A stretch of 60,504 bases of DNA, from positions 1 to 60,504 of the forward strand of contig CAXNEW010000006.1 of the NCBI GenBank assembly GCA_964201665.1, in the 5' to 3' direction. Positions 5,894-60,504 of this stretch are shown here, piece after piece. Positions within the stretch are counted from its first letter, which is position 1. Each line of letters begins with the position of its first letter. The notes beneath the pieces were generated by a model, which ran no database searches, was not told the DNA's origin, and saw nothing but the letters and a program-made list of their open reading frames with translations. The stretch comes from Bdellovibrionota bacterium. Its GTDB lineage: Bacteria > Bdellovibrionota > UBA2428. A program made the translations under genes and the position numbers.

Positions 5894-5935
5894 CTAAAGA
5901 TCCCATTCCCAGGCGATGCGGGGGCCGAAGCTGAC
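5894..5935 (-). pseudogene. Duplicated 3' end (VSFGPRIAWEWDL*) of gene 6732-8384; att-like remnant
   Basis: 42-bp direct repeat of 6732-6773 with 6 mismatches, all synonymous third-codon positions. Confidence 0.92.
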
Positions 5936-5995
5936 ATTTAGTAATTTGCTTTGGCCCCTCTTAGGGGATGGCTTTTACAGTACGAGAAATAGGTC

Positions 5996-6024
5996 TTGAA
6001 AAGGGTCTCAATATAGGTCATAAT
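5996..6024 (+). promoter_or_regulatory. sigma70-type leaderless promoter of the TA operon with repeated operator-like boxes
   Basis: TTGAAA-17 bp-CATAAT, 7 nt before ATG 6032; ATAGGTC repeated at 5989-5995 and 6013-6019. Confidence 0.65.
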
Positions 6025-6031
6025 TTAGTCC

Positions 6032-6271
6032 ATGAAAAATCTGAAAATTTCTGAGCTTAAAGCTGGCCTTTCTAAGGCTCTGGAAAGGGTTGAGGCGGGA
6101 GAAGAAATTCTTGTGACCGATCATAATAGACCCATTGCCAGATTGAGTTCTGTAAAAAAGGTTCCACCCTTACCTAAGGAACCCGTAGTTTGGGACTTTG
6201 AGCGATCTGTCCTAAAGAAGGGGTCTCTGTCTTCGCACGAACTTATTCGGAAAATTCGAGATGAAGAATAA
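6032..6271 (+). CDS. Phd/YefM-family antitoxin
   Basis: KISELKAGLSKALERVEAGEEILVTDHNRPIARL; overlaps the downstream toxin. Confidence 0.92.
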   Translation: MKNLKISELKAGLSKALERVEAGEEILVTDHNRPIARLSSVKKVPPLPKEPVVWDFERSVLKKGSLSSHELIRKIRDEE

Positions 6272-6704
6272 GCACCATTTTTATTGGGATACGTCGGCTT
6301 TGGCTTCAATGCTTTTTGGAGAATCCGATGGAAAAAAGCTCATTTCCTGGGCAAAAAAAAATGAAGGTCTTCCGGGATATACATCTTTTTTTACATGGAT
6401 AGAGCTCGAGTCAGCTCTTCAGAGGCGGGTCAATTTAGGCGAAATTATGATCGAAAATTTGCCAAGTGTTCAGCTTGCAATTGAAACCTTAAGTCAAAAT
6501 TTTGCAATTCTTTGGCCTGATGTTTCGGTAACTGCAGAAGCAAAAAGCCAAGTTGCAAAGATGGGTCTTAGGCCTGGTGACGCCCTTCAGCTTGGAAGTG
6601 CCCTACTTGCAAATCGAGAAGTTGGAAATGTGGCTTTTATATGTCTTGATAAAAAACTTTCGCAAGCCGCTGCTGCAAATGGCCTCAGGTGCCCTGAATT
6701 TTAA
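6261..6704 (+). CDS. vapC: VapC-like PIN-domain toxin
   Basis: YWDTSAL, ELESAL, LRPGDALQLGSAL and FICLDKKLSQAA PIN motifs. Confidence 0.9.
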   Translation: MKNKHHFYWDTSALASMLFGESDGKKLISWAKKNEGLPGYTSFFTWIELESALQRRVNLGEIMIENLPSVQLAIETLSQNFAILWPDVSVTAEAKSQVAKMGLRPGDALQLGSALLANREVGNVAFICLDKKLSQAAAANGLRCPEF

Positions 6705-6731
6705 TCATGCACAAGGCGGACTTGTAGGCTG

Positions 6732-8384
6732 CTAAAGATCCCACTCCCATGCGATGCGTGGTCCAAAGCTTACCTGAGTGAAAACCGTTCGGCGGCCTCG
6801 GCTTGTGAGGCCATTGTGGAGGGCTTCGCCCTCGCTGTGGGAGAGTCTTTCGGCTTTGAAGTTGGCGCCGATAAGAAAGCGATGGACGTCTCCAATTTTT
6901 CTCCGCACAAAAAGATCTAAATCTATGTTGTATGGAAAAAAATAATAAGGGCGGCCCCGACCAAAGTAGTCACCCTTATCCATAAAAAGTGGAAAATAAA
7001 GATAAAGCGCCGAGGATAGATCATACTTGGCTTTCCAGCCTCCCCATCTGATTTCTCCGCCTGCAACTAAACTCACAAGACCATAGTCAATAATATCCAT
7101 TGAGTAAGGTTCGACAGAATTTTTTGGACGGGCCTGTTCTAGACGCCGATAGGAGAGCAAACCCTTGAGCAAAATGGGTAGAGTGCCACCCCAGGGTTCC
7201 CATTTGTAGGTGGGACCCAGGTCAAGCTGTCGATGCACAATTGCAAAAGGCTGATGGGTCGTACCATAAAGAGAGTTTGAGTTATCAAATTTGAATCTAT
7301 CGTACCTAAATAAAATTTCACTACCCCAAGGATTCCAGATTTGACTTTGAACTCGACTGCCGACTGAGAAGGCCCCGATGGGATCTAGAAGTCCCTGATT
7401 TGTAATTTTTTCAAAGCCTGTCATTTGGTCGTTAGAAAGAGACCTCGTTCCCCATGTGGGACCACCAGAAATAAAGCGCCAGGTTGTTCCAATGTATTGC
7501 GAGTGAAAACCCATGGGATCTTGCTCGACTAAAATAGTTACGCTTTCTTGGGAGAGCTGTTTTTCGTCAATATAATCTTTAACCGTAATTTGATAGCGGC
7601 CGGGAGGCAGAGGAGGTAACCAACTTTCAGTTTCACCAGAAACTTCAAGGTGCGTTATGCGTCCGGCGGGCGAGGGTTCAATGCGATAGATATGTATTTG
7701 TGATTCTTCACCGGGGACCGTTCGAATCCACCTCAGTTTGTGGGGCTCAAATGCTGTTAAAATATCTCGCTCCACGGGAAACAAAATTCGAGGATTGCTT
7801 GAGGGTTTAATTCGAATTTGAAACTGAGAGATTGCGGAATCTGAAATAACTGAGCCAAGGGCTCGCGCCGAAATTTTTACTTTCCAGTTACCCTCAATGT
7901 TTTGTGGTAACTGAAACCTGGTTAAGTTCACGATTTTGACTTCAAAATTCTTTTCCCCCGGCTTTTGAACTTCAACCTGGTAGTCTTCTGCGCCCTTGAC
8001 TCCCTTCCATTCCACAACAATCGGAATGGATAGTGATGAGATTTCAATTGTTTCGTCTTGTTTTGGCGAACGAAGCTCGGGACTTTGAGATTTAACGAGT
8101 TTTTTAACTGCCGGAGACCAAGCACCAGCCAATCCCCCCTTGTCGAGAGGCCGTACTCTAAAAAAATAAAGGCCCGCTGGAATTTGGCTATTGAAAATAG
8201 GATTTTGACTTTCTCCCTGACGGATTAAAGTGTCTGGTTTAAAACTGCCGTCAGTAGAGAGTTCGAATTCGTAAGCTTGGGCTCCGGGAATAGGGTTCCA
8301 GCGAATCTCGAGTTCGTCGGCCCAAGCAAAACTTGAAAAGCTGAGTCCTAATGTAAACACCAAACTCAAAAAAAATTTAAACAT
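6732..8384 (-). CDS. Secreted/outer-membrane protein: tandem Fn3-like domains plus C-terminal beta-barrel-like region
   Basis: Signal peptide; WNPIPGAQAYEFELS..YFFRVR..WS Fn3 pattern; alternating aromatic strands ending IAWEWDL. Confidence 0.65.
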   Translation of the reverse strand: MFKFFLSLVFTLGLSFSSFAWADELEIRWNPIPGAQAYEFELSTDGSFKPDTLIRQGESQNPIFNSQIPAGLYFFRVRPLDKGGLAGAWSPAVKKLVKSQSPELRSPKQDETIEISSLSIPIVVEWKGVKGAEDYQVEVQKPGEKNFEVKIVNLTRFQLPQNIEGNWKVKISARALGSVISDSAISQFQIRIKPSSNPRILFPVERDILTAFEPHKLRWIRTVPGEESQIHIYRIEPSPAGRITHLEVSGETESWLPPLPPGRYQITVKDYIDEKQLSQESVTILVEQDPMGFHSQYIGTTWRFISGGPTWGTRSLSNDQMTGFEKITNQGLLDPIGAFSVGSRVQSQIWNPWGSEILFRYDRFKFDNSNSLYGTTHQPFAIVHRQLDLGPTYKWEPWGGTLPILLKGLLSYRRLEQARPKNSVEPYSMDIIDYGLVSLVAGGEIRWGGWKAKYDLSSALYLYFPLFMDKGDYFGRGRPYYFFPYNIDLDLFVRRKIGDVHRFLIGANFKAERLSHSEGEALHNGLTSRGRRTVFTQVSFGPRIAWEWDL

Positions 8385-11994: not shown

Positions 11995-12037
11995 TTTCCT
12001 TCCTTCCTACCTACTTAGGAATTCTGAAAACCGTTTT

Positions 12038-12121
12038 GTCAGACTGATTACAAGTCTTAGGTTCCTAGGGGACTGGCTCGGGTTCTTCCCCTAGGAGCCT
12101 AAGACTTGTAATCAGTCTGAC
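12038..12121. repeat. Hairpin-element copy 4: 35-bp inverted repeat (one G-T pair), loop CTGGCTCGGGTTCT
   Basis: Arms 12038-12072 and 12087-12121. Confidence 0.95.
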
Positions 12122-12187
12122 TGCCGTAGCTCGATCGAGGACCAAATTCTCGATCAATCTAGAAATTTTTGTGGGGGGACTTTATTT

Positions 12188-13239: not shown

Positions 13240-13307
13240 CACTTCATTTTAATGTGATTCGGGGCTTTGAAAAGACCCCTTTGTCTTTTTCCTGTTAATA
13301 TATAGGG

Positions 13308-14504
13308 ATGTTTTCCCAGTTGCCAGCTATCTGGGTCGATCTTGATTCGCTTGGAAAAAATTTTGGAATTCTAAGAATGAGATCTCCAGGTGGGGTTGTT
13401 TTTCCTGTACTCAAGGCGGATGCCTATGGTCACGGGGCAAAAATTGTTGCTGAATTTCTTGAAAGAATTACAAAACCTACAGAATGTCCGTTCTTTTGTG
13501 TGGCTCGCTTCGGAGAAGCCTTAGAGGTTTTAAGATCCCAAAGGACGCGTGATGTTCTGATATTATCGGATCGTTTGAGTTCGGAGAATTATAAAAATCT
13601 CGATCCAAAGTTGGCCGAGCGAATAATTTGGGTTGTAAATGATTTTACCGATTTAAAAGACTTTTTGCCCATGAAACTAAAGCTCAGACTACACCTGAAT
13701 TTCAATACCGGAATGAATCGGCTGGGTTTGGAACCTGAATTGGTAGAACAAAAGGAATTTTGGGAAACATTGAGCCAATTGAATAGGGCAGGACATCAGT
13801 TCGAAGGCATTTTGAGTCATTTGAGTGATGGAGAAGAAGATCCAGTTGTTTTTTCTTCTCAGCAGGTAACTGTTTTTGAGCGAGTTGTAAATAGACTACA
13901 GGTGGATTGGCCAGCCAGAATGCCATCCGATTTTCCAAAATGGATTCATATCGAAAATTCAGGTGGAAATTTTTGGGCCGTTGGTAAAAAATTTTCTAAT
14001 GCAAGTCGTCCAGGTTTACATCTCTATGGAGTGATATCTAAACTGAGTTCCGAGTTTAAGGACCTTGGTCTTTCTCCGGTTCTCGAGGTGAGAGCACCTC
14101 TTCGAAAAATATTAAAGTTAAAAAAGGGTGATCGTCTAGGCTACAATCGAACCTATGAATGCACTCGGGAAAGTTTCATTGGGGTTGTGGGCCTGGGATA
14201 TGCTGACGGAGTCGCGCGGCGTTTTTCAAAATCAGATTCACCTCAGGTCGGTTTCTGGATTTATGGACAAAGGGCTCCGCTGGTTGGAGTGATTTCAATG
14301 GATTTATGTCATGTGGATCTTACAGACCACCCGCAAATTGAAAAATTGCTTGATCGCCCCCAAGGAGTTTTTGCAGAATGGCTAGGATCGCACCAAACAG
14401 CTTGGGATTTGGCCCACGTGTTGGGGACAATCCCTTATGAAATTTTAACATCGCTGGGACATCGATTGCCCCGTATCCCGGCAATCAAAAACAAAACACC
14501 ATGA
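13308..14504 (+). CDS. alr: Alanine racemase
   Basis: VLKADAYGHG PLP lysine motif; NTGMNRLG; GYADG; GTIPYEIL. Confidence 0.95.
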   Translation: MFSQLPAIWVDLDSLGKNFGILRMRSPGGVVFPVLKADAYGHGAKIVAEFLERITKPTECPFFCVARFGEALEVLRSQRTRDVLILSDRLSSENYKNLDPKLAERIIWVVNDFTDLKDFLPMKLKLRLHLNFNTGMNRLGLEPELVEQKEFWETLSQLNRAGHQFEGILSHLSDGEEDPVVFSSQQVTVFERVVNRLQVDWPARMPSDFPKWIHIENSGGNFWAVGKKFSNASRPGLHLYGVISKLSSEFKDLGLSPVLEVRAPLRKILKLKKGDRLGYNRTYECTRESFIGVVGLGYADGVARRFSKSDSPQVGFWIYGQRAPLVGVISMDLCHVDLTDHPQIEKLLDRPQGVFAEWLGSHQTAWDLAHVLGTIPYEILTSLGHRLPRIPAIKNKTP

Positions 14505-33779: not shown

Positions 33780-35145
33780 AGCGAGGGTTACTTTTTTTGG
33801 TTTTGAGTTTTTAGAAAAAACACTTACCGTCACCCCTTTGAATATTGCCGCTTTTGTTTATTTGGCTGCCGTTTTAGTTTTTTTTGTTGGGATAGCAAGA
33901 TCGGGTTTAAAGGCCCAACAATCGCGAGCTTCCAGTCTTGCTCAGGTTTTGGTTGTGGCGGGTTTTGTTTTACACACTGTAGGTTTAGCTGGAAGATGGT
34001 ACGTAGGGGGTTTTGATCGTCCACCCTGGACCAATCTTTATGAATCGTTGGTGGCCTTTGCTTGGATGCTTGCAGGGTTTCAAATTTACTCTCAAAGAAA
34101 TTGGAAAATTCCACTCGTTGGAGCCTTTTCAACACCTCTTATTTTTTTATTGATGGGCATGAGCGTAATGACTCCAAACAAATCGCTCGAGCCTTTGATT
34201 CCGGCCCTGCAAAGTAACTGGCTAAAAATTCATGTGGTTTTTGGAATGATTTCCTATGCTGGGTTCACGATGGCGGCCTGCTTTGGATTTTTGCATTTGA
34301 TACGTTCACGAGCCTCTCTGTCTTTTTTGGGGGGCGGGCTGTGCCTGATGACGGTTTTGAATTTAGGAATTTCAGGCGGCCGTGAGTTTTTGGAGACGGG
34401 CAAGTTTTTTATGGCCAGTACTGTGGAGCGCGAGGTTGCGCCCGGGCAAATGACCTGGGTCAAAGACACCTATCGCGAATATCCCGATGGTCCCGTTATC
34501 ACTCGCATGCAAGAAGTTCCCAATGCCCATCCGGTTTTTTGGGCTGCACTTCTTGTGTTCGCACTTGCTGCGATTTTGATGTTCTGGAATCGAGTGCCTC
34601 ATCCTGGAATGAAAGGTTACGATATCAGTAGGCGCTCGCTGATTTTGTTTGTTTCAGGACTCGTGCTGCTTTTGGTTTTCTTTGGAGTTGTGGGCTACGA
34701 CATGTGGCAGGATCCTCATTTGCGAATGTCTTCGAATCCCTATCTGACAATGCTTTTGTTTATGACTTTGATCATTTGTTCGATGTTTGTAGTGATTTCT
34801 GCTCGGTACGAAAAATTTCTAACCTCTCTGCCCAGCGCCGATAGACTTGATGAATTAAGTTATAAAAATATTTTGTTTGCCTTTCCATTTCAGGCTCTAC
34901 TGTTGATCACCGGTGCCGTTTGGGCCTATTCGGCCTGGGGCAGGAGTTGGGGGTGGGATCCAAAAGAAACCTGGGCACTGATTACGTGGTTTGCATATTT
35001 AATTTATCTACATGGAAAGCTTTTACTTCGTTGGAAACCTCAATTACTTTCAGTTGTTTCGCTCATAGGTTTTGTAATTATGGTGTTTGCATTTTTAGGT
35101 GTGAATTTAGTTTTGAGCGGCCTTCACAGTTACGGCGCTGCCTAA
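33766..35145 (+). CDS. ccsA: Cytochrome c biogenesis protein CcsA/ResC
   Basis: LIPALQSNWLKIHV, WAYSAWGRSWGWDPKETW (WWD motif), SGLHSY. Confidence 0.95.
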   Translation: MDSLEARVTFFGFEFLEKTLTVTPLNIAAFVYLAAVLVFFVGIARSGLKAQQSRASSLAQVLVVAGFVLHTVGLAGRWYVGGFDRPPWTNLYESLVAFAWMLAGFQIYSQRNWKIPLVGAFSTPLIFLLMGMSVMTPNKSLEPLIPALQSNWLKIHVVFGMISYAGFTMAACFGFLHLIRSRASLSFLGGGLCLMTVLNLGISGGREFLETGKFFMASTVEREVAPGQMTWVKDTYREYPDGPVITRMQEVPNAHPVFWAALLVFALAAILMFWNRVPHPGMKGYDISRRSLILFVSGLVLLLVFFGVVGYDMWQDPHLRMSSNPYLTMLLFMTLIICSMFVVISARYEKFLTSLPSADRLDELSYKNILFAFPFQALLLITGAVWAYSAWGRSWGWDPKETWALITWFAYLIYLHGKLLLRWKPQLLSVVSLIGFVIMVFAFLGVNLVLSGLHSYGAA

Positions 35146-35148
35146 CAA

Positions 35149-35766
35149 ATGGGATTTGCTCATAAAATAAATCTTCTTTTTACCGCGTGGAATCCAAGCG
35201 AAATTCTGCCGCAAAAAGATCCGGCTTGGATTGTTTTGGGGCGTTCAAATGTTGGAAAAAGTTCGCTTCTAAATGCCTTAACTCATCCGACCCAGGTTTT
35301 TAAAGTTGGCGCTAGACCCGGCCTAACTCAAGGAATCATCTGCGCCGAAATTTGGTTGGGCACATCAGAAAAATCAAAATTCGAACTTTTAGACACCCCG
35401 GGCTTTGGGTTTACCAAAAAACCTGCTGCTGGCGATCGCTGGGTTGAACTTCTCACTGAATTAAAGAATCGTGGCCCAAAGGAACAACGTCGGTGGCTTT
35501 GGCTGGTTCATGCCGATCGAGATCCTGATGAAATGGATTTTCAGCTTGCCGATTGGTTGCAAGGAGAAGACTTTCATTTGCTGCTCACTAAGGCCGATAG
35601 GTTTAAAACAAAAGAGCGTGAGTCCCTAATGCTTGGGTGGCTAAAGAAATTTAGGGGACTCCAGCCAGATAAGGTGCTTTGGGTTTCGGGTAAATCCGGT
35701 GAGGGGACTGATGTGCTTGGAAAGCTTGCTAAGCAGTTTGTAAAGGCCTGCAGAGAAGGCGCCTAG
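35149..35766 (+). CDS. engB: Ribosome biogenesis GTPase EngB/YihA/YsxC
   Basis: GRSNVGKSS, PGLT, DTPGFG, TKAD. Confidence 0.88.
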   Translation: MGFAHKINLLFTAWNPSEILPQKDPAWIVLGRSNVGKSSLLNALTHPTQVFKVGARPGLTQGIICAEIWLGTSEKSKFELLDTPGFGFTKKPAAGDRWVELLTELKNRGPKEQRRWLWLVHADRDPDEMDFQLADWLQGEDFHLLLTKADRFKTKERESLMLGWLKKFRGLQPDKVLWVSGKSGEGTDVLGKLAKQFVKACREGA

Positions 35767-35784
35767 AGTTTGTGTTAAACTATA

Positions 35785-36315
35785 ATGGCGATGTCGCTTT
35801 TAAACTCCATGATGGTTTTGGCTCTGGTTGGCGGTAGGTCCATCAACGACAGGGACCTTCATATTTCGCGCGGGCTCGAAAGTGTTGCAGTTATTGAGAA
35901 TAGCCTGCTCACGGGTTTTGCTGCGCCCACTCCACGAGAATCCGAAGTGGCCCTTCAGAAATACATTACCGAGATTTTAGTGTTTGAGGAGTCTCGAGTT
36001 TTGGGGGCACAGAGTGTAACCGGGCCGGTTCTTGAGAGTGAAATGACAAAACGAAAAACCGGGCTTGGTTCTAAAAAGTGGAATCAATGGTTGGTCTCGC
36101 TGGATGCGACTGAAGCCGAAATTCGTCGGCGTTTGGAGCAAAAATTGATTGTAGAAAAAATTATTGAAGAGCGAGTTAAGGTAGCCTCGCAGAGAGAAAA
36201 AGATCCCAACCTAGCCATGCAAGAGGCACAAAAAAGTTTGAAAGATTGGTTGGATCAGTTGCGCTCTCGGTACCGAGTGCGGAGGCTTGCGCCCCCCCGT
36301 TTTGGTGACTCCTAG
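35785..36315 (+). CDS. SurA N-terminal-like chaperone-domain protein
   Basis: LALVGGRSINDRDL..LKDWLDQLRSRYRVR. Confidence 0.5.
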   Translation: MAMSLLNSMMVLALVGGRSINDRDLHISRGLESVAVIENSLLTGFAAPTPRESEVALQKYITEILVFEESRVLGAQSVTGPVLESEMTKRKTGLGSKKWNQWLVSLDATEAEIRRRLEQKLIVEKIIEERVKVASQREKDPNLAMQEAQKSLKDWLDQLRSRYRVRRLAPPRFGDS

Positions 36316-36323
36316 GCTGTTAA

Positions 36324-36767
36324 ATGAGTTTAGAAGTTAGTGCTGAACTTCTGCTTAGGCTTCAAGGGGACCACCTGGAAGCGGTTCAAAATCCCTGGTC
36401 ACTCAGTGAATTTCAAAAAACCTTAGCCCAGCCCCAGTCCCGAATTTTTTTCTGGCCCCATAAAAAAAAGCCCGAGGGTTTTATTCTTTGTTTTGAAAAT
36501 TTTAAAGACGCACACAATCTCGAAATTGAAATCTTGCACCTTGCGGTTGAAGTCAAAAATCAAGGAAATGGATTTCGAATGTTTGAAAAATTTTTAGCCG
36601 ATACAAAAACCCAGGCTAAAGAAACTGTTGTTTTTTTAGATGTAAACCCAAAAAATTTGAGCGCCCTCAAACTCTACAAAAAGTTAGGTTTTTTGCAGGT
36701 CGGCGTTCGCCAAAAGTATTACAAAACGGGCGACGACGCATGGCTAATGAAATTCTTAGTTAAGTGA
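36324..36767 (+). CDS. rimI: RimI-like GNAT acetyltransferase
   Basis: NPWS, EILHLAV..QGNG, FLDVNPKNLSALKLYKKLGF..RQKYY..DDAWLM. Confidence 0.88.
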   Translation: MSLEVSAELLLRLQGDHLEAVQNPWSLSEFQKTLAQPQSRIFFWPHKKKPEGFILCFENFKDAHNLEIEILHLAVEVKNQGNGFRMFEKFLADTKTQAKETVVFLDVNPKNLSALKLYKKLGFLQVGVRQKYYKTGDDAWLMKFLVK

Positions 36768-36931
36768 ATAATCCTAGTTGAATCCAGTACCAAGGAGGAC
36801 CCCTCAAATGAATAAATAGGGTTCGTTTGTGGGGGGGGCGAGATACATGGGTTGTGTTTGCTCAATCTCACTCTACACTATGTTGAGTTTTTCTTGACTC
36901 ACTAAGCATTGAACGGGCAGGTTCCGCCTCC

Positions 36932-37786
36932 ATGAATACAGACACCGACAATGCCGATTACCGGCAGCGGCTTAAACTTGAGCTTGAGCAACGCTTGAGT
37001 CTAAATCCCCGGTACTCACTTCGGGCCTTTGCGCGCGATTTGGGTATTTCTCCCTCCCGTTTGTCACATGTGCTTAAAGGCAAATTTGGTCTTTCGGAAT
37101 CAGCTGGTGAAGGAATTGCAGCCAAGCTTGGCTTGAATGCAACCGAAACGGGCGCGTTTGTGAACAGTATTTCTGCCCAACACGGTCGATCGGGTATTCG
37201 TCGGGAAACAGCGCGCAGACGGCTCGAATCATTGCGAAAAGAAATCACCGAACTGACAGCTGATTCCTTTATGCTTATTTCTTAGTGGTATCATCTTGCT
37301 TTGCTGGAGCATTTCTCTGGCAGCCAAGCCACTGCAGATCGTTCTGAACTTGCCTTTCAGTTTCAGGTGAGTACCCTGCAGATTTCTGCGGCTCTAGAAC
37401 GTATGTGTCGATTGGGAATTCTTGAAAAGAAAAAGGAAACCTTTAAACCGACGGGATCCTTTTACGTTAATCCCCTAGGCACGCCTTCGGAAGCCGTTCG
37501 AAATTTTCATAAACAAATTCTGCAGAAGGCTCTCCTTTCGCTTTCTCAAACAAGTGTTGAAGCTCGCGACATGGGCGCTGTGATTCTTAACTTCGATCCC
37601 GCCCAAATGCCAAAGGCAAGAAAAGTGATTAAAGATTTTCGAATTCAATTTGAAAATTCATTTAATGCGAGTTCGGAAAAAACAAAAAGTGTTTATGTTC
37701 TTTCGACAAATCTTTTTGCTCTAAGTCAGCCCCCGGTACCCAAAAAAGCCCTTTCCCCAAGCACCCCTAAAAGGAAAAATATATGA
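36932..37786 (+). pseudogene. TIGR02147/DUF4423-like HTH protein interrupted by an in-frame TAG (37283-37285)
   Basis: NPRYSLRAFARDLGISPSRLS; ..LIS*WYHLALLE..; AVRNFHKQIL..VYVLSTNLFAL; both ORFs are in the same frame. Confidence 0.8.
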
Positions 37787-40056
37787 AAACATTAAACCCT
37801 CTAAAACTCCTCGTGCTTTTACTGTGTGCGGGTTTTATCACCCACTTAAGTCATGCACAAACAAGGTCGCCCCTTAACAAGGGGGGTGGGCAACATGTAG
37901 GAAACGGTGGCGACGTCGTTTTTTGCCCATCGGGGCAACCTTTCCAGATTATGGCTCTTGATCTTTACGAGGCTATGGTGCGATTTAAATCCAAAAAACA
38001 GTTGGTATCCATTAACTGGCAACTTGCAAAAGACGATGAGCATCCCGAAGGTTTCAAAAATATTGGAGCCGAAGACCTTGCCTACAAACTTTTGGCTAAA
38101 GATATCCAAATCCCAATTCCTCAGCGGCAAGTTTTACAAGTGGGAATAGAAAATTGGACAAGTCAGGCGGCATTTCTAGAAGACATTGAACTCAACGATG
38201 TCCCTGATTCTCAACATGTAGGTATTCCCGAGGGCTGTAAGATTCGACAGCTCGTCGTGCAGGGCCCGCTTGTGGGACTCAATTTCAACCTGCAAGATAT
38301 TTACTATATTGTGGATCAAGCTCTTTGGGCCATGCTCCCTCGATTCCAGCAAGCTATGATGATTCTACATGAAATGTATTATCGCGATGAAGTTTTGCGC
38401 GGGGCCACTAACAGTCTCATCACGCGTTTCATTGTGGGCTCGATTGCTACTGAGTTTCTACAAAAAACCAAAGACGAGAAAACCGAAAATTTCAGTCTAA
38501 GGGGCTATGTTATTCCACAAGTTCTAATTGATCGAGCTGATACCACTGAGTGGAAATGGACAAATCTCGGGCTTGTGCACAAAGAAAAAGATTTGGTCTG
38601 GTGCCAAGGTGGGCTCAGTTTCGGCGGGGTGATGGTTGCGGATTCAATTCCGCAATTTGAAACCTTCGAATCTCAGCACCTGGTAAGTATTGAACATAAC
38701 AACCTTCTTCAGGACTGCTTCAGCAGCATGGGGCATAGGCGATGGCACCCAAGAACAAAATTCTCACGAAAAGTTTTTGTAGCGGACTCGAGTGGTGAAA
38801 AACTCGAGTACAGAGAAGTAACTTCGGAGGTGGTCCAGGTCGCGCTGAGCCCTGAGCAAATTGCGACCCGAAATTCCTCGTTCGATTCAGCTTTTTTTAT
38901 TGATAAAGTTGATTTTTTTGAACTCCCTCCTTTTCCGAGTTCCTTGCTTTCGCTAGATTCGCAATCCAAGAAACCTGAGATCTCTGAAAAGGAAGAGGCA
39001 GCTTCCCGAGACTCGCCTTCCAGCTTGCAGTTTGTTTTTGCACCTCGACCCAATCGATTGATTCAGGTGCTTGGGCAAAATATCGACCTGAGTCAGGGGG
39101 CAATCGCAGATATAACCTTTAAAGGAAAAGAGGGAGCAGGCCTTTCGCTTGCAAACTCAAAAGGTGTAAATATTCCTTTTTTCACTGAGCTCCAAGTGGC
39201 AGGGATTTCAACAAGCCAAAAAATCGGAATTTCAAGGTTAGAGTTCCACACAGTAAATGATGGATTTGGATATCAAGATATTTTGAGTCTCAACTTAGTT
39301 GAAGGTTCGGCTATTGAAGTTGAGACCGGACATCTCACTCGACCTTTTGCAAGGGCCTTTGTAGCGAAGTTAAAGTGCACGGGCGATCTGCCTATAAGTT
39401 TTTTAGCTAAAAACAATGTATTGGCCTTTTATAAGGCCTCTAATTTGTGTCGGCCGCTTGAGAATCTTCCCTCAGAAAGCGAGATAAAAGAAGTAACATT
39501 CGATTCGTGGAGTTATTGGGACATGGTTGGAAAAAAAGATTTTAGCTTTTCGGTAGGTGCGAATCCGTCAGGCTTACAGTTTCCAAAAAGGATTGTTTTT
39601 GACGATGCCAGAAACTTAAAGATTCGGTGGGGAATTAGCGAAATCTGGATTCCGGCCAAAGAGGTTTCAGGTAATCTGGTTAAGCTTGGTAACGTGTCAG
39701 AGAAATCAACGCTAAAGTTCAAGGGCTCCCCAGGTCCTGGAAGGCTGAAGTCACTCGCTGAACCTTCAGGAGTAAATGAATTTAAAGTCATGCTTCAGTC
39801 TGGAGCCACAATAAAAATGGGCTCTGAAAGTAAGGTCGACATTTTACCTGTGGCATCCACAGAATTAATTCCCGCGGCGTGGCGTGACGGTTCTGAGAAG
39901 GTCGTTTTGAAATGGTTGGAGTTTGATGACGAAAACCCACGCGGATATTTTTTACTCTCATATACTGAATCACTTAAAGAACAGGCGGCTGTTTTCATCG
40001 ATAGCTACGAGACTCAAAGTGGCTTTAGATCGCAGCCTTTGGAGCCTTTAAAGTAA
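37783..40056 (+). CDS. Large secreted hypothetical protein with N-terminal GG..VGNGGD motif
   Basis: Signal peptide; GGGQHVGNGGDVVFC, LDLYEA, GCKIRQLVVQ, ILHEMYY; ATGA overlap with the regulator. Confidence 0.7.
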   Translation: MKTLNPLKLLVLLLCAGFITHLSHAQTRSPLNKGGGQHVGNGGDVVFCPSGQPFQIMALDLYEAMVRFKSKKQLVSINWQLAKDDEHPEGFKNIGAEDLAYKLLAKDIQIPIPQRQVLQVGIENWTSQAAFLEDIELNDVPDSQHVGIPEGCKIRQLVVQGPLVGLNFNLQDIYYIVDQALWAMLPRFQQAMMILHEMYYRDEVLRGATNSLITRFIVGSIATEFLQKTKDEKTENFSLRGYVIPQVLIDRADTTEWKWTNLGLVHKEKDLVWCQGGLSFGGVMVADSIPQFETFESQHLVSIEHNNLLQDCFSSMGHRRWHPRTKFSRKVFVADSSGEKLEYREVTSEVVQVALSPEQIATRNSSFDSAFFIDKVDFFELPPFPSSLLSLDSQSKKPEISEKEEAASRDSPSSLQFVFAPRPNRLIQVLGQNIDLSQGAIADITFKGKEGAGLSLANSKGVNIPFFTELQVAGISTSQKIGISRLEFHTVNDGFGYQDILSLNLVEGSAIEVETGHLTRPFARAFVAKLKCTGDLPISFLAKNNVLAFYKASNLCRPLENLPSESEIKEVTFDSWSYWDMVGKKDFSFSVGANPSGLQFPKRIVFDDARNLKIRWGISEIWIPAKEVSGNLVKLGNVSEKSTLKFKGSPGPGRLKSLAEPSGVNEFKVMLQSGATIKMGSESKVDILPVASTELIPAAWRDGSEKVVLKWLEFDDENPRGYFLLSYTESLKEQAAVFIDSYETQSGFRSQPLEPLK

Positions 40057-40075
40057 AACAGCGTGAGCCACGAGG

Positions 40076-40183
40076 CTTTATGAAAAGTTCAAATTCATCC
40101 AGGTTGGAGTCCGTAAGAAATATTACAAAACGGGCGACGACGCATGGGTGATGAAAAGGGAATGTTTAGGTTTTCAACCCTGA
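40076..40183 (+). pseudogene. Second copy of the rimI 3' end (att-like remnant)
   Basis: Translates LYEKFKFIQVGVRKKYYKTGDDAWVMK..*; 27 bp (40121-40147) identical to 36717-36743. Confidence 0.92.
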
Positions 40184-40230
40184 TTTTTTGATTGCGAACG
40201 AGCTACCAAAACGGCTAAGTCACCCCCGGA

Positions 40231-42903
40231 ATGAAGATTCTTTCGGGTTTCAAAAAAGTAACCGTTTTTTGTTTGATTCTTTTGGTGGTCGTTTCGACTC
40301 CACCCGTAGTCGCTGGGCCTGAAACCCAAATTGTTATCTCAGATGCTGCATTCGAAGTTTCTGAGGGTTTCGACTTCAATTTGGGCATACCCGACCATTT
40401 AACTGAGCCGCGGGATCGAAAATTCTACATGTTGGTCCGTGAAAAAAATTCGGACTTTCACTTAAGAAGACTGTTTGAAAATGAACTTTTTAAGCTCGAA
40501 TACAAGCCCGAAAACAGAGTCTTGTTTGATGCCCAACTGGCAAGCTTTACTCAGCGATTTCCCCAACTTTTAAAAGGGCATCTTGAACAGACACTCAAAG
40601 AATTCCCGCACACGGGGCAGAATGTGGAGGGAGGTCGGATTCTAACAATTCCACAGGGGCTTGAATTTTGGATTCGATTGGTGAGCCATCCCAACCCCGA
40701 AAAGAAAGTAGCGGGACTCATTTTTTTGGCCCGCCCCTTTGCTGACGATTTATCAGGATTGCCTGGCCGGCTGGTAGAACTTTTGACGGATACCCATTCG
40801 CCAAAAACTCAGATTCTACGATCGGATCAGTTTACTGAAAAGGAAATGCAGATTCTGATTCAGTTCGCCCAGACAAAGGAGTTTTCTGTTTCTAAACACG
40901 GAAACTATGTACTTATTGGCAAGGGTCAGAGTTTTGACCTTTTTCGAGAGTTGTTTTTTGAAGCCAAAAAATTAGTGGATCCTGTGCTTCAAACGAAATT
41001 TGTGAGAGTTTTAAATTTTCTTTCATCCCAGGGAATCAGCGTCGAAATGGACGAGAACCAGGGTGCCGCTGCGTATTTTGCCCTTGGCCAAAAGAGAATT
41101 GCCTTTGTTATGCCAAGTCGAATTGATCTCGATACTCTCACTCATGAAGCCACCCATGGGCGATTTGATAGGTTTTTAGAAACCTTTGGCAAATGGATTC
41201 GTGGCAAAAACTACGCCGTACCTTACGAAGTTGATGGGCCCTCAAACGCGATTTTTTCGAATTTTGGGGGCTATATGAGCCTTCTCAACGAACTGAATTC
41301 TTGGCGTGTCGGTAGTTCGTTTTCAGATAAACTGACCGATGAGGAGATTTTGAAAATTCTCGAAGAGTCTTACGGGCGCCAAGCCGGATTTAAAGCGGCC
41401 AACGATTTTGACAATCTGTGGCCAGCCTCTCGCGTGGAAAACAAATCTGTTCCCTCTCTCATTGTTGAGGCCACCCGAAGTCTCAATGAAATGTCGAATT
41501 CTCAGGTTCTGGATTACGGCAAAAGATCTCTGACCACTCAAGACGAAATGGGACAACATAATTTTCTGCGACTGGTGCTAGCGCGATTTAAACCAGACAT
41601 GATTCCAGATGATCTATTAGAGGTTGTAGCCGCTTTTCAGCACCAGGGTTCGATTAAGAGGGTTCGAGACCTCGCACAAAGGGTTTTTGAGCGTAGGCTT
41701 CCCAAATTTGATTCTCCTGCTAAAGAGCCCCTCGATGCTGTAGCGATTGTCCCTCAGCAGTTTGACGCCCTTTGGAAAGAATTTCTGAATGAACCCACCT
41801 CCGAAATTAACGATGCGTTGGTTGAGAGTCATTCTCGACATTTTCGCGCCGAGCATCTTAGAAAATTATTCGCCCTAGCTTTTGACGATGAACAACAGGG
41901 AGATCATCGGACTCAAGCGTTTAAACTGCTGGAAGCCCTCTTTGAAAAACTGGGATTTGATTGTATCTACGAACCCTCAGAATATTCCGGGATGGTGGCC
42001 TTACAGCAATCGATGAACCGGACGAATAATCGGCCGCTCGATGCGGACCTCCCCGTCTCAAGACCGAGCAACCCCACTCATTGGCTGTTCAATACTCAGA
42101 CTGACGCCCTTATTGCTGAAAAAATGTTTAACGGAAGGCCCGGAGCTTATCGTCTGGATTTGATTAATTTTATTACGAGTCACACTTATCCCGGTGAATT
42201 GCCATTGCTGGGTAGGCGTCTAGTTGATGTGATTAGTCGCGATGGGGCACTTCTAGACAAAAATGATTTTTGGGTGGCCCGTATGTTTTTGGTTCCAGCT
42301 AAATCGATTATGTATAAAACTCATTTGGTGTGGGGTGAGTTCGTTGCTAACGCTGTGATGAATGATCAAAGCCCCCAGCCCACAGCACTCGAGTTTGTGG
42401 CAGAGTTCTATCGCCTGGCCGTCAGCAAGGTCTTGCCCCTAAGAGTTACGCGAGTTTCCATGACGGGAAGGTTAGATGAAACAGTTCGTCGTGATTTCAA
42501 AGCCAGTTTAAGAAAGGCGACATCGCGACAGAAATTCCTTCTTAAAAAAGGGACACAAACACTTTGGCAACTTTTGGGGAATGAGAGCGTACAAATCAGA
42601 AGAGCAGCTAGATACGCGATTGCATCGCATCCTGGTTTTTTACTTGAACTGGAATCTTCTTTAATTAAATCGCTAAAAGGCTCTAACGCCATCTATCGGA
42701 CCGAGGCCATCTCTCTGATTTCTTATGTGAAGCCGGGATTTTTTTCGAAAATTGATCGAGTTTTGGATGACCCCACTATGACACTAACCCCGGAGGAGAA
42801 AGCAATATTGAGTTTAAGACGATCTCCTCAGAGTCAAGTTTCAAACTGCTCCGAAAGCCTTTTCCAAGTTGTTATAGAATTGCCGAAAAGAAAGATTATT
42901 TAA
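40231..42903 (+). CDS. Large secreted hypothetical protein with HExxH motif and HEAT-like C-terminus
   Basis: Signal peptide; LTHEATHG plus downstream LLNELNS; LLGNESVQIRRAARYAI. Confidence 0.65.
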   Translation: MKILSGFKKVTVFCLILLVVVSTPPVVAGPETQIVISDAAFEVSEGFDFNLGIPDHLTEPRDRKFYMLVREKNSDFHLRRLFENELFKLEYKPENRVLFDAQLASFTQRFPQLLKGHLEQTLKEFPHTGQNVEGGRILTIPQGLEFWIRLVSHPNPEKKVAGLIFLARPFADDLSGLPGRLVELLTDTHSPKTQILRSDQFTEKEMQILIQFAQTKEFSVSKHGNYVLIGKGQSFDLFRELFFEAKKLVDPVLQTKFVRVLNFLSSQGISVEMDENQGAAAYFALGQKRIAFVMPSRIDLDTLTHEATHGRFDRFLETFGKWIRGKNYAVPYEVDGPSNAIFSNFGGYMSLLNELNSWRVGSSFSDKLTDEEILKILEESYGRQAGFKAANDFDNLWPASRVENKSVPSLIVEATRSLNEMSNSQVLDYGKRSLTTQDEMGQHNFLRLVLARFKPDMIPDDLLEVVAAFQHQGSIKRVRDLAQRVFERRLPKFDSPAKEPLDAVAIVPQQFDALWKEFLNEPTSEINDALVESHSRHFRAEHLRKLFALAFDDEQQGDHRTQAFKLLEALFEKLGFDCIYEPSEYSGMVALQQSMNRTNNRPLDADLPVSRPSNPTHWLFNTQTDALIAEKMFNGRPGAYRLDLINFITSHTYPGELPLLGRRLVDVISRDGALLDKNDFWVARMFLVPAKSIMYKTHLVWGEFVANAVMNDQSPQPTALEFVAEFYRLAVSKVLPLRVTRVSMTGRLDETVRRDFKASLRKATSRQKFLLKKGTQTLWQLLGNESVQIRRAARYAIASHPGFLLELESSLIKSLKGSNAIYRTEAISLISYVKPGFFSKIDRVLDDPTMTLTPEEKAILSLRRSPQSQVSNCSESLFQVVIELPKRKII

Positions 42904-42933
42904 ACCCAACCCCCTAAAATAGGGTGTCGAGGT

Positions 42934-43032
42934 TTGTTTAAAAAATTCAAGTTTTTTCAGGTTAGAGTCGGAGTGAAATACTATATGAATGGGGACGACG
43001 CATGGCTGATGTTAACGGAAATGAGCTTTTAA
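42934..43032 (+). pseudogene. Third, more decayed copy of the rimI 3' end, overlapping the pyrK start
   Basis: Translates LFKKFKFFQVRVGVKYYMNGDDAWLMLTEMSF*; contains the pyrK ATG at 43002. Confidence 0.85.
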
Positions 43033-43826
43033 GCTTTCACGCAAAAAGTTGGTCTGAGTGGCCGGGGCGATTGGTTAAACCCCCCCGACGGGGGTCAGAG
43101 ATTGATTTTCATTTTAATATTGAGGTTCCGGGTTTTCGTGCCTGGACTCCAGGACAGTTTGTGATGCTCAGGTGGGGCCAACATTTAACGGGTCGACCCT
43201 TCGCCATTTTTGAATGGAAACAGGCCGGGCCGAATTCTTCTCAGCTTCACTTGCTTATTCGAAATGCCGGTGAGGGCACAGCTGAGTTTATAAAAAATGC
43301 TCAAGCCCAAGATTTAGTTTGGGTGCGCGGGCCTTTAGGTCAAGTTCCGTTTGCGGCTGATCTGACTGAAGATCTTAGGCCTTGGATTTTTTTAAGCGAG
43401 GGCGCCAGGCTTGCCGGTGTTTTTGCGATGATTCATTTGCGACGTAAACTTCAACTTCAGCAGCAACTTCCAACTGATTTTTGGTGGCACACGGAGACTC
43501 GAAAAGAATTCATGGACGCTGAAATTCATTCGCGGGCGTACGTTAAACCCGATGCAATTGGTTTTTCTGAAACCCAAATTCTGATACCTGAAAATCTTGA
43601 TCTCACAAAGTATTCAAAGGTGATTGCAGTGGGTAGTGAAGACTTTCAAAATTCGTGGGCAAAACTTGCCAACCAGTATTCAAACCTTGATGGAAATTTA
43701 TGGCTTCGTAGAGACGCGCCCATGGCTTGTGGAATCGGACTTTGTTTTAGCTGCACGGTTGAGACGGCTCAAGGGCCCCAGCGAAGTTGCCTTGAGGGAC
43801 CCTGGTTTGAGGGGAGTCTCAAATGA
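43002..43826 (+). CDS. pyrK: Dihydroorotate dehydrogenase electron-transfer subunit (divergent)
   Basis: PGQFVML, RPFAI, RGPLG, MACGIGLCFSC..SCLEGP [2Fe-2S] motif. Confidence 0.85.
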   Translation: MADVNGNELLSFHAKSWSEWPGRLVKPPRRGSEIDFHFNIEVPGFRAWTPGQFVMLRWGQHLTGRPFAIFEWKQAGPNSSQLHLLIRNAGEGTAEFIKNAQAQDLVWVRGPLGQVPFAADLTEDLRPWIFLSEGARLAGVFAMIHLRRKLQLQQQLPTDFWWHTETRKEFMDAEIHSRAYVKPDAIGFSETQILIPENLDLTKYSKVIAVGSEDFQNSWAKLANQYSNLDGNLWLRRDAPMACGIGLCFSCTVETAQGPQRSCLEGPWFEGSLK

Positions 43827-44719
43827 ATTCATCTCTTTTGGGTCCCATGAAATTTTTGGGCCGCGAATACGAGAGTCCGATTTGGGCCGCTTCGGGTTGC
43901 TATGGTTGGTATGTCGAGGCCCAAGACGGTGAATTTTTGCCCCAAAAGAATTTGGGCGCTGTAGTTTTGAAAGGACTTTCATTTGAGGCTGAAAGGGGCG
44001 CTCCGCAGCCTCGAATTTGGGAAATGGGCGAGGGGCTAGGGCTTGTAAACGCAATTGGTTTACAGAATCCCGGCTTTGATAAATTTAAAACAGATTATTT
44101 AAATCGATTTTTAAAAACCCAAAAACCAAAGCATCCCTTATGGCTAAATATTTACGGAAAAAAAACTGAAGAATATGTCAAACTCATAAAAAGCTTAGTT
44201 GGCGAAATTGAAAATCTAGATGTGAAAGGAAGCCAAGGAGTTTTTGCGGGATTTGAAATCAATATTTCGTGCCCAAATGTGGAAAAGGGCGGACTTGAAT
44301 TCTCTCAAGATTTAAGTGTTTTAAATAAATTACTAACCGAAATTAAATTAGTTTCGCGAAATTGGCCGATTCTTGTTAAATTCTCGGCAGCTGAAAGCTC
44401 GAGCGGAATTTTAGAAAAAGCCAAAATTTGCGCTGATAGCGGCATTTCGGGAATCACACTCTGCAACACTTTGCCCGCGCGCCCGCCAAAGGGAAAAATT
44501 GGACGAGGCTCGGGTGGACTTTCAGGCCCCACGCTTAAATTGCAGTCTTTGCGTCTTATTGAATCTGTCGCCGGCAAGTGCGGTGATTTGAAAATAGTGG
44601 CTTGCGGAGGAATCGATGGATTAGAGGCCGCAGGCCAGGCACAGTCAGCCGGAGCTGAAATTTTTCAGGTCGGAACCCAAGTACTTCGCGACCCCTGGTT
44701 TTTTGATCGTTTGAAATAA
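43823..44719 (+). CDS. pyrD: Dihydroorotate dehydrogenase class 1B catalytic subunit
   Basis: ASG, NAIGLQNPG, EINISCPN, GGLSGP. Confidence 0.92.
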   Translation: MNSSLLGPMKFLGREYESPIWAASGCYGWYVEAQDGEFLPQKNLGAVVLKGLSFEAERGAPQPRIWEMGEGLGLVNAIGLQNPGFDKFKTDYLNRFLKTQKPKHPLWLNIYGKKTEEYVKLIKSLVGEIENLDVKGSQGVFAGFEINISCPNVEKGGLEFSQDLSVLNKLLTEIKLVSRNWPILVKFSAAESSSGILEKAKICADSGISGITLCNTLPARPPKGKIGRGSGGLSGPTLKLQSLRLIESVAGKCGDLKIVACGGIDGLEAAGQAQSAGAEIFQVGTQVLRDPWFFDRLK

Positions 44720-44813
44720 ATTAACTAAAGATTGCCAAAAATGGGCAGCTAACTGGAAAAACTTTAGCCATAGCCTCGCTCCTTAAATGACTGAAAACTT
44801 AAGTTTGATCACT

Positions 44814-44829
44814 CGGCACAAAGCTTGCA
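44814..44829 (+). promoter_or_regulatory. Putative sigma54 promoter
   Basis: CGGCACA-AAGC-TTGCA upstream of the GGAG RBS of 44857. Confidence 0.6.
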
Positions 44830-44856
44830 AACACTCCTAGCCATGGAGATAGCAAA

Positions 44857-45231
44857 ATGAAAAACTCATTACTTACCCTCGGACTTGGATTTGGTTTAGG
44901 CTTTTTAGCTGTTTCCTTTTTTGTGGGGCCTCAAAAAGTTCAAGCTGAAATCACGGGGCGAGTGCGTGCCCATCAGGCCCGAAAGCCGCTATCTGAGGCC
45001 CGGGCTGAGAGTCTCAATAATAACTATTTTCACAAAAAGAAGTATGGAAAAACAAAGGCTTCTAAAGTTGTTAAAAAAACAGAGTCCTTTAAGAAGAAAT
45101 CCGTCGTAATAAAATCAAAAAAACTTGAGAAGAAAAAAATCGTGTCAAAGTCTCAAAAAAAATCACTGAAGAAAAAAGCACAAGCCTCTTCAAAAAAGAA
45201 AAGGCCCTTAGTGCTCGATTTTACGAGCTAA
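44857..45231 (+). CDS. Small exported/membrane-anchored Lys-rich hypothetical protein
   Basis: N-terminal hydrophobic segment, very basic tail, RBS. Confidence 0.6.
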   Translation: MKNSLLTLGLGFGLGFLAVSFFVGPQKVQAEITGRVRAHQARKPLSEARAESLNNNYFHKKKYGKTKASKVVKKTESFKKKSVVIKSKKLEKKKIVSKSQKKSLKKKAQASSKKKRPLVLDFTS

Positions 45232-59480: not shown

Positions 59481-60269
59481 ATGACTTTTTCGGGCAACTT
59501 TTCAACAGATCAATCAACACCCGGGCAAACGCCTGACTCAAGGCCGCCAGTTCAAAATCAACTCGAAGAGGGAATGCTTTTTGTTGTTGAAGACGATCCC
59601 GATCTTCAGCAGATCCTTACCTTTAACCTTCAAAAAAATCGCTATGCGGCTCGCTGTTTTTCAAAGGCCGAAGAGCTTCTTTATTTTCTAGATTCCTCAC
59701 CCAAGCTTGAGGCTTTGGGATTCATTGTTGATATCAACCTTGCAGGGCGAATGAATGGCTTAGAGCTTGTGCGAGAGCTCCGAAAAAATAAACGTTTTTC
59801 GACGACCCCCGTTATTATGCTCACAGCAAAAGGTGAATCCCCCGACGTTGTTCGTGGTCTCGAAGACGGCGCCGATGACTATTTGCCAAAACCCTTTGAT
59901 ATGGAAGTTTTTGTTGCCCGCCTCAAAAGCTGCTTGCGCAGAAGCGAAAGAACTGTTGCTCCCATTGCAGGGCATCGCCGAGCCCTCTCTCTTTCTGGAA
60001 TTGAGATTGATCCCATTTCACACAAGGTCAATGTTGAAGGTCGAGAGGTTTATCTGACCACCACTGAATATGGCATTCTAGTAGCCCTCATGAACAAACC
60101 CAATGAAGTTCTGGGTCGTGATGATCTGCTTTTACGGCTTGTAGGACCCAATAAAACTGTAACGGGTCGCACGATCGATGTTCACATTCGTGCCTTGCGC
60201 GCCAAACTTGCAAAAAAATCGCGTCATATCGTTACGATTCGAGGTTTTGGCTATAAATTTGTTCCATGA
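59481..60269 (+). CDS. OmpR/PhoB-family response regulator
   Basis: VVEDD, VDINL, MLTAK, GADDYLPKPF, RTIDVHIRALR, TIRGFGY. Confidence 0.95.
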   Translation: MTFSGNFSTDQSTPGQTPDSRPPVQNQLEEGMLFVVEDDPDLQQILTFNLQKNRYAARCFSKAEELLYFLDSSPKLEALGFIVDINLAGRMNGLELVRELRKNKRFSTTPVIMLTAKGESPDVVRGLEDGADDYLPKPFDMEVFVARLKSCLRRSERTVAPIAGHRRALSLSGIEIDPISHKVNVEGREVYLTTTEYGILVALMNKPNEVLGRDDLLLRLVGPNKTVTGRTIDVHIRALRAKLAKKSRHIVTIRGFGYKFVP

Positions 60270-60504
60270 GTTTAAAACGGGCAAAACAGCCCCGACAGTC
60301 CTTAGGTAAAAAATCAGGCCTCTCAAAGCCCCGCCGAGCCCTAGAGAGGCGCGGTAAACAAGAGCGCCGCACACAATCCCCTGTTGATCGCAAATTCTTG
60401 AATTTCTCTGAAAACGATTTTCGAGCAAAATTTAAATCACGTGGGCTCGCCGATTCCTTGCCCTACGCTGTTATCAACACCGAAGGTCAACTTGAGGCCC
60501 TTAA
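60266..60504 (+). CDS. 5' part of a probable PAS-containing sensor kinase (runs off the window)
   Basis: ATGA overlap with the regulator; frame open to the window end; ADSLPYAVINTEGQLEAL looks like a PAS start. Confidence 0.5.
   Translation, partial: MSLKRAKQPRQSLGKKSGLSKPRRALERRGKQERRTQSPVDRKFLNFSENDFRAKFKSRGLADSLPYAVINTEGQLEAL

Follow-up and report, generated by a model that had tools for sequence, protein, structure and literature searches.

Tandem accessory cassettes closed by copies of the rimI 3′ end, between rimI and pyrK of a Bdellovibrionota bacterium

Introduction

Tandem accretion of accessory DNA at one chromosomal site is already known from cis-mobilizable elements (CIMEs), from composites of the staphylococcal cassette chromosome (SCC) and from tycheposon islands. 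We describe an array that works like these, behind rimI, the gene of a GNAT acetyltransferase, in a bacterium of the phylum Bdellovibrionota. The window is a stretch of 60,504 nucleotides (contig CAXNEW010000006.1 of assembly GCA_964201665.1, here contig C6). The host genome is a metagenome bin of 1.8 Mb in 95 contigs, 68% complete, and is the sole representative of its genus among the genomes compared. Two integrase-less units lie between rimI and pyrK, divided by copies of the rimI tail: c1, the end of the working gene, and then c2 and c3. We give a probability of about 0.6 to the reading that the units entered by serial single-crossover (Campbell-type) insertion, each cassette carrying a foreign rimI tail.

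Islands of the ICESt1/ICESt3 type in Streptococcus thermophilus have the fda gene as their target, and the Ccr enzymes of SCC are serine recombinases. In laboratory insertion-duplication a non-replicating circle integrates by homologous recombination, which is the Campbell-type route. CIMEs, in the passages of PMC5704250 that define them, are decayed integrative and conjugative elements (ICEs) or integrative and mobilizable elements (IMEs) and depend for their movement on the integrase that a related resident element supplies. For SCC composites, passages of PMC13739063 take the element furthest from rlmH as the oldest and count 450 ‘no-ccr’ elements flanked by att sites. Tycheposons of Prochlorococcus, as portrayed in parts of 10.1101/2020.12.28.424599, use seven tRNA genes as integration sites and encode a tyrosine recombinase.

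Like CIMEs of the ICESt1/ICESt3 type (passages of PMC5704250), the rimI units lack integration and transfer genes, stand in tandem at one site and have their target kept intact by the incoming end; they also have the structural features of CIMEs, since direct repeats with the 3′ end of the target (c1, c2 and c3) bound both. They differ in that no remnant of a larger element, no helper and no dedicated integrase was found here, in their small size of 2.8–3.4 kb with one or two genes, and in that several unrelated protein-coding genes serve as targets. With SCC composites they share a housekeeping gene end as target, internal boundaries, recombinase-less units and the pushing of older units downstream (passages of PMC13739063 and 10.1101/336396). 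Unlike SCC, the target is rimI and not rlmH, the 68%-complete genome has no PF00239 match, the phylum is another one, and the repeats, coding-like tails of 81–120 bp, far exceed those of SCC in length and divergence. The likeness to tycheposon islands lies in a streamlined aquatic genome, repeated integration at one site, older elements pushed inward, partial copies of the target and niche cargo (parts of 10.1101/2020.12.28.424599). Tycheposons differ in target, which here is a protein-coding 3′ end in a window without tRNA genes, and in their recombinase, which these cassettes lack; a tRNA-Arg array on contig C1 is the sole match to tycheposons in target type.

Unlike integron arrays, the locus has no IntI with attI, the two XerD-/XerC-like recombinases of the genome being on other contigs, and no attC fold. 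With laboratory insertion-duplication it shares its topology, namely a gene with the incoming homologous piece, then cargo, then the displaced resident copy. A second locus of the window, with toxin-antitoxin cargo, departs from that model in having no identity block above 12 bp. We know of no natural route of gene gain by insertion-duplication with homology so short and diverged. Transposon insertion, where short identical target duplications are the rule, was considered as a source of the repeats and rejected: they measure 42–120 bp and differ at 14–37% of positions, mostly synonymously.

A limited full-text search did not find rimI as a published integration target; in PMC9058013, rimI is named only as a gene inside an element. 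The less usual traits of the array are its single-gene scale, protein-coding targets at three loci of one small genome, an overlapping gene pair as the site, and the want of an integrase. Little is understood of the ways in which small environmental genomes that are poor in integrases acquire accessory genes. In this window cargo, namely putative secreted proteins and a toxin-antitoxin pair, has been added behind housekeeping genes, the host gene end apparently being rebuilt from a foreign copy.

The rimI array

rimI is the last gene of a block, ccsA-ysxC-hyp176-rimI, that is kept in relatives of the same family. Its product matches TIGR01575 with E 3.4e-18 and 66.1 bits, short of the curated cut-off of 86.4, and also matches PF00583. 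Behind it the codons of its 3′ end recur twice in the same orientation, each time with a sharp left limit and no rimI body (Table 1). An earlier note on this DNA, made from the sequence alone, had given three tail peptides, and translation reproduces them exactly. Its comparison of c1 (36672–36752) with c2 (40076–40156) was likewise accurate: 62 of 81 nucleotides and 21 of 27 residues are identical, with 8 synonymous codon changes and a 27-bp identical core, to which we add 6 codons that differ non-synonymously. The third copy (c3, 42934–43014) agrees with c1 in 17 of 27 residues and does contain the start codon of pyrK (43002), as that note said.

The likeness of the tails is far beyond chance. 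The 27-mer core has exactly two occurrences in the 1.8 Mb of the genome, and a 12-mer within it (36732, 40136 and 42994) has exactly three, all in the three tails. With c1 as query, BLASTN of the genome finds c2 (E 1.8e-11); TBLASTN with RimI finds c2 (E 9e-10) and c3 (E 2e-5); and c2 and c3 match each other in BLASTN with E 2.8e-5. Upstream of c2 and c3 no significant similarity to the rimI body was found (protein P 0.3 and 0.05, DNA P 0.13 and 0.18, respectively), so the two are tails only and not whole pseudogenes.

The units measure 2.8–3.4 kb and hold one or two genes. Cargo open reading frames (ORFs) fill them, leaving spacers of 19–164 bp, and together they put 6.2 kb between rimI and pyrK. 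The rimI-like frame of c2 starts 10 bases past the stop codon of the 757-aa gene and is open from 40067 to a stop at 40181–40183; it is followed by a relic of a pyrK head (ATG at 40144, MGDEKG…). Copy c3 begins 30 bases past the stop codon of the 890-aa gene, its rimI frame stops at 43030–43032 and it overlaps pyrK by about 31 nt. It is probably the original rimI/pyrK junction.

Table 1. Features of the rimI array and of the two other protein-coding loci (window coordinates unless a contig is named)
Feature	Coordinates	Strand	Remarks
rimI, 147 aa, GNAT acetyltransferase, intact	36324..36767	+	TIGR01575 and PF00583
Tail copy c1, working rimI 3′ end	36672..36767	+	LYKKLGF...DDAWLMKFLVK, stop
27-bp identity core, copy 1	36717..36743	+	codons KYYKTGDDAW; exact repeat at 40121-40147
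Cassette 1	36768..40066	+	164-bp spacer, TIGR02147/DUF4423 gene, 757-aa gene
TIGR02147/DUF4423 helix-turn-helix gene, cassette 1	36932-37786	+	broken by in-frame TAG at 37283-37285
757-aa protein gene, cassette 1	37783-40056	+	signal-like N-terminus
Tail copy c2	40067..40191	+	ATRLYEKFKF...DDAWVMKRECLGFQP, stop; core 40121-40147
Cassette 2 cargo, 890-aa protein gene	40231..42903	+	signal-like N-terminus; HExxH at residue 305
Tail copy c3, most decayed	42934..43032	+	LFKKFKFF...DDAWLMLTEMSF, stop; overlaps pyrK start 43002
pyrK	43002-43826	+	ancestral downstream neighbour of rimI
pyrD	43823-44719	+	ancestral downstream neighbour of rimI
550-aa gene instance	5894..6773	-	gene 6732-8384; last 13 codons and stop recur at 5894-5935
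Phd/YefM antitoxin, cargo behind 550-aa gene	6032-6271	-	
PIN toxin, cargo behind 550-aa gene	6261-6704	-	
relA/spoT instance	contig C45, 8657-9835		735-aa gene; last 18 codons recur 1065 bp downstream

Divergence of the tail copies

The differences between the tails are of the kind that coding sequence accumulates. The proportions of differing synonymous (pS) and non-synonymous (pN) sites are 0.67 and 0.13 for c1/c2, 0.92 and 0.24 for c1/c3, and 0.70 and 0.21 for c2/c3. These values were set against a null simulation in which the copies start identical, the working copy takes synonymous changes and 10% of other changes, and the displaced copy is under no constraint; the runs went on until the base differences equalled those observed, with the transition bias varied from 1 to 4. 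The probability of as few amino-acid changes as observed was 0.0000–0.0115 for c1/c2, 0.0000–0.002 for c1/c3 and 0.0135–0.038 for c2/c3. Because the simulation rejects local duplication followed by decay, the tails, judged from their codons, took on their differences within working rimI genes of separate lineages. The earlier note had argued the same from synonymous bias, and the rejection of neutral decay bears it out.

Differences are unevenly placed. In the 45 bases left of the core c1 and c2 are 62% identical, with pS about 1.0 and pN 0.21, and the core itself is without any difference. Given 19 differences in 81 positions, an identical run of 27 bases has a probability of 0.0025 by nucleotide and 0.0007 by codon. 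At the core the two sequences either were identical or became so, the trace expected of a crossover.

Right of the core the copies differ in affinity. The stretch of c2 downstream of it is co-linear with c3 around the start of pyrK (P 0.016). The peptide MGDEKG in the pyrK frame of c2 resembles the PyrK start MVDEKI of one relative (G009), and its rimI-frame end, AWVMKRECL…, resembles the RimI end AWVMKKCL-stop of two others (G001 and G010). With its pyrK-head relic and a rimI-type end that is open and resembles the ends in relatives, c2 looks like a seemingly complete rimI-tail/pyrK-head junction from a related lineage, one that would once have worked. The end of c1, LMKFLVK-stop, resembles LMKLIIK-stop of G002, whose genus has no pyrK behind rimI. 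A KFKF motif and, at the left edge, the bases CGAGG are also common to c2 and c3. Since KF-x-F is among the ordinary variants of RimI in the family, the motif is not a shared scar of the two.

Outside the rimI-like tails the ends of the two cassettes have no sequence in common (P 0.9 and 0.84). The three tail regions, folded as DNA on both strands, gave no attC-like fold (z -1.72 to +0.31, no long hairpin). There was no Rfam match in 35000–45000 and no tRNA in the window, and promoter- and terminator-like sites were no commoner than in shuffled sequence.

The junction in relatives

The order rimI-pyrK-pyrD, which the earlier note had proposed as ancestral, is found in relatives. In 8 of 29 relatives’ rimI loci pyrK follows rimI directly, with pyrD behind it where the locus reaches that far; four of these are among 17 loci of the same family (G001, G004, G009 and G010) and four among 12 loci of other families. 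The two genes overlap or abut in the four family members: by about 8–20 bases in G001, G009 and G010, and, as inferred from alignment coordinates, apparently also in G004. Since the three genes are contiguous in relatives, the 6.2 kb in the window are an insertion into an overlapping gene junction.

In five further genomes of the family rimI is followed by other genes, and pyrK is absent from the 3.9 to about 18 kb behind it. Searched with its own RimI tail as query, none of them showed a second tail up to 18 kb downstream. RimI had itself as the sole match in a set of 5.8 billion proteins. A metagenome scan with RimI gave 76 pattern matches, with no relative among them; a degenerate pattern of the core peptide gave one match in metagenomes, inside a valS gene, two in species genomes, both in stop-filled frames, and none in viral contigs.

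The same footprint at other genes

The C-terminal 40 residues of 2140 ORFs of at least 100 aa were searched against the genome, and same-strand matches within 10–20 kb downstream were kept. After removal of tandem paralogues and repeat families three loci were left: rimI, a gene for a 550-aa protein in the same window, and relA/spoT. Other short local repeats of the genome are palindromic intergenic families or tandem paralogues and not displaced tails.

Behind the 550-aa gene the cargo is a Phd/YefM antitoxin and PIN toxin pair. Its tail copies differ at 6 nucleotides, all synonymous (simulation P <= 0.0005), and the Phd/PIN pair is absent from all 8 relatives’ loci of the 550-aa gene.

The relA/spoT tails have an identical core of 29 bp and then 8 differences in the 18 codons compared. 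Of these a single one alters the protein, by a conservative exchange of Ile for Val, and the two stop codons are not the same either. The identical run has a probability of 0.0077 by nucleotide and 0.0055 by codon, and the simulation gives P 0.0045–0.014. A 298-aa gene with a signal-like N-terminus is the cargo between the copies. In relatives miaA stands directly and convergently behind relA at 11 of 19 loci, and neither the 298-aa gene nor a neighbouring 362-aa gene occurs at any of the 19. The latter, which is lineage-specific, lies between the relA remnant and miaA on contig C45; no third relA relic was found next to miaA. The rimI and relA/spoT cores are unrelated to each other.

On contig C1 (about 7455–14440) the 3′ end of a tRNA-Arg(ACG) gene, with conserved flank, recurs several times behind the gene. 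A second repeat, of 56 nt, occurs three times in that array at a spacing of 1.7–2.5 kb.

The earlier note had seen in rimI a dedicated capture point for genes of secreted proteins. That specificity does not hold: the 550-aa gene, relA/spoT and tRNA-Arg show the footprint too, and one of these has toxin-antitoxin cargo.

Recombinases

Pfam and NCBIfam scans of all cassette ORFs found no recombinase gene or fragment and no integration or transfer genes. The contig of the window is free of PF00589 and PF00239 matches, in keeping with the absence of an integrase reported before. The scan for trans-acting recombinases that the earlier note had suggested brought up two tyrosine recombinases genome-wide, on contigs C25 and C55. 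Both score well under the cut-offs for integron integrases and match XerD and XerC best, and no candidate helper emerged from the 68%-complete genome, which also gave no serine recombinase with PF00239.

Mechanism and alternatives

From the repeats we infer circular intermediates, an order of events, crossover points and a kind of enzyme. The rimI/pyrK junction, at first two overlapping genes in one operon, would have been opened twice by circular cassettes, each made of one or two accessory genes and a rimI-tail piece of about 100–120 bp from a related lineage. Once this piece had recombined with the resident tail, the left side would carry a whole rimI and the right side the displaced tail. 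In the older event the 890-aa gene would have come in, leaving c3 at pyrK; in the younger the TIGR02147 and 757-aa genes would have come in by a crossover inside the 27-bp core, leaving c2. This order of the two units is the one assumed for SCC composites (passages of PMC13739063). Because neither cassette encodes a recombinase, the enzyme would be either a recombinase supplied in trans, which is the classical explanation and the one given for CIMEs (passages of PMC5704250), or host homologous recombination acting on a short identity island. The same process may lie behind at least two other protein-coding genes and the tRNA-Arg gene of this genome.

In the earlier note each insertion pushed the whole old tail downstream. 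Displaced copies there are, as it said; the wholesale displacement does not stand if the crossover fell in the core. In that case c1 would be native left of the core and imported right of it, and c2 the reverse: the left arm of c2 would have come with cassette 1, and its right arm with the pyrK-head relic would be the previous tail. Such a hybrid fits, since the right side of c2 is like the older junction and the end of c1 like that of a lineage without the junction; the simpler exchange of whole tails may nonetheless be right. Once relatives or raw reads exist, the order of insertion and the donor lineage could be read from the displaced tails themselves.

Several points weigh against serial insertion of foreign-tailed cassettes. 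No recombinase for these sites was identified, in a genome that is only 68% complete. The G+C content of the cargo, 0.42–0.47, does not differ from the 0.44 of the genome, so any donors must be compositionally alike. None of the collections searched holds a genome, contig or protein of the same genus; hence no empty site, single-cassette variant or other cargo has been seen. Logan data are contigs of one run; they showed neither joints nor variants, but contigs cannot show rare excised forms or circle junctions. The tails are short (27 codons). Two of the further loci were picked up by a protein-level scan as well, and such a scan is biased towards few amino-acid changes; BLASTN, however, recovered every one of them. 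Finally, the longest identical tail block at the toxin-antitoxin locus is 12 bp, and with no arms shared between cassettes a single mechanism is not established.

A narrower form of Campbell-type insertion holds that the cassettes need no site-specific recombinase and that circles enter by host homologous recombination at identity islands of 27–29 bp; we consider it possible, if doubtful. Here fragments of relatives’ chromosomes, or free cassettes with a tail piece of a conserved gene, would circularise. In its favour are islands of 27–29 bases in the most conserved codons, the absence of a shared motif or arm and the absence of integrases. Lengths of 27 and 29 bp are about the minimum for efficient RecA-dependent exchange. 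As a single cause it is opposed by the toxin-antitoxin locus with its block of only 12 bases. If true, it would explain why the cores lack a motif, differ between loci and sit in the most conserved codons, why those of rimI and relA/spoT are near the minimal RecA length, and why three protein-coding loci of one genome are affected; natural insertion-duplication would then be a general, enzyme-free way of adding genes behind housekeeping genes in integrase-poor streamlined bacteria.

The units could instead be decayed integrase-bearing islands (prophage, ICE or IME), site-specific at the rimI 3′ end, from which deletion later removed the integrase and most other genes and spared only cargo and att scars. 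Decay of this sort is the standard route to CIMEs (passages of PMC5704250), direct repeats of a target 3′ end are its hallmark, and the 12-mer common to the three tails could be the crossover core. We nevertheless think it unlikely. No fragment of an integrase or other mobile function is left, the cargo being intact between spacers of 19–164 bp, and the same neat loss would be needed four times at three loci. Nor do the cassettes share arm sequences. Beside the 12-mer c1 and c2 have 15 more identical bases, against only 62% identity over the adjoining 45 bp, and an integrase needs no such run.

A local origin of the repeats, in which the overlapping junction was copied in place at each insertion and the copies then diverged in this lineage, has two attractions. 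Given the rimI/pyrK overlap in relatives, a viable insertion must duplicate the junction; and c2 and c3 share KFKF, the left-edge CGAGG and a right side like a pyrK head. It is nonetheless very improbable: simulated neutral decay gives far more amino-acid changes than seen for every pair, left of the core the synonymous sites have reached saturation, against no change at all in the 27-bp core, and KF-x-F is ordinary in the family.

Artefactual joining, which the earlier note had named as something that would undo the finding, is scarcely credible: although this is a metagenome bin at about 7–10-fold coverage (Logan contig depths 10.1, 7.09 and 8.84), in which co-occurring strains might be misjoined via a short core so that the three tails were never on one molecule, cores of 27 and 29 bp fall short of the 31-letter words of Logan, and that separate assembly bridges all junctions. 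Its contigs from the probable source run (36459–39031 and 39005–45000) span c1, c2 and c3 with unique flanks and 0 differences, and break away from the tails, at 36451/36459 and 39005–39031; the reads are common to the two assemblies, which limits the independence of this check.

Cargo genes

The cargo modules are as first described, with the amendment that a single TAG splits the TIGR02147 gene. Both halves (…MLIS-stop-WYHLA…) still match the TIGR02147/DUF4423 family and the Logan contig has the same base; the gene may be a fresh pseudogene, or the codon may be read through or be a consensus error.

The 757-aa and 890-aa proteins have hydrophobic N-termini, as judged from the sequence alone. 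In the 5.8-billion-protein set the former has no relative. Its N-terminal domain alone recurs, in 2 of 19 family genomes and on contig C3 (18638–20117), where, in a paralogous module, an intact TIGR02147 gene is followed by a gene whose protein shares only residues ~33–217 of the 757-aa protein.

The 890-aa protein has three homologues in that set, at 44–50% identity, one of them labelled as from a Bdellovibrionaceae metagenome-assembled genome, and HExxH is invariant in all four. The family, rare in Bdellovibrionota, has an invariant THExTHxRF motif, and the member in the window is without a segment of about 100 residues that the three homologues have. The protein is present in none of 19 other genomes of its own order and in 6 of 400 others sampled from the phylum; at the four of these loci that were inspected neither rimI nor pyrK is near. 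Viral contigs held no relatives of either cargo protein. The Atlas gave weak leads, all with scores below 0.9: the 890-aa protein was linked to HEAT-like repeats, the 757-aa protein to unnamed Bdellovibrionota clusters.

Other repeats

Palindromic intergenic repeats of about 55–65 nt (GCACGAACACCGTT…AACGGTGTTCGTGC), resembling repetitive extragenic palindromic (REP) sequences and often several per 10 kb, occur on contigs C10, C13, C25, C26, C30 and others (e.g. C30 5778–5835). A second dispersed family, mostly intergenic and starting CCCGTCATCCCGAACGAAGTGAGGGATCCCC, was seen on contigs C2 (60449, 65496), C4 (39611, 43047) and C20 (9903, 16893). In the window a 45-nt palindromic repeat (CTAGGGGACTGGCTCGGGTTCTTCCCCTAG…) stands at 5811–5855 and 12065–12109; the copies are 89% identical, 6.25 kb apart and both intergenic. 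Contig C29 (1–4200) holds a long array of coding repeats of about 303 nt with 63–73% identity, which probably encode a large, repetitive protein of the cell surface. At its right end (60251–60504, 254 bases) the window matches the end of contig C40 (14919–15172) in reverse orientation with 90% identity; this may be a repeat where the assembly broke.

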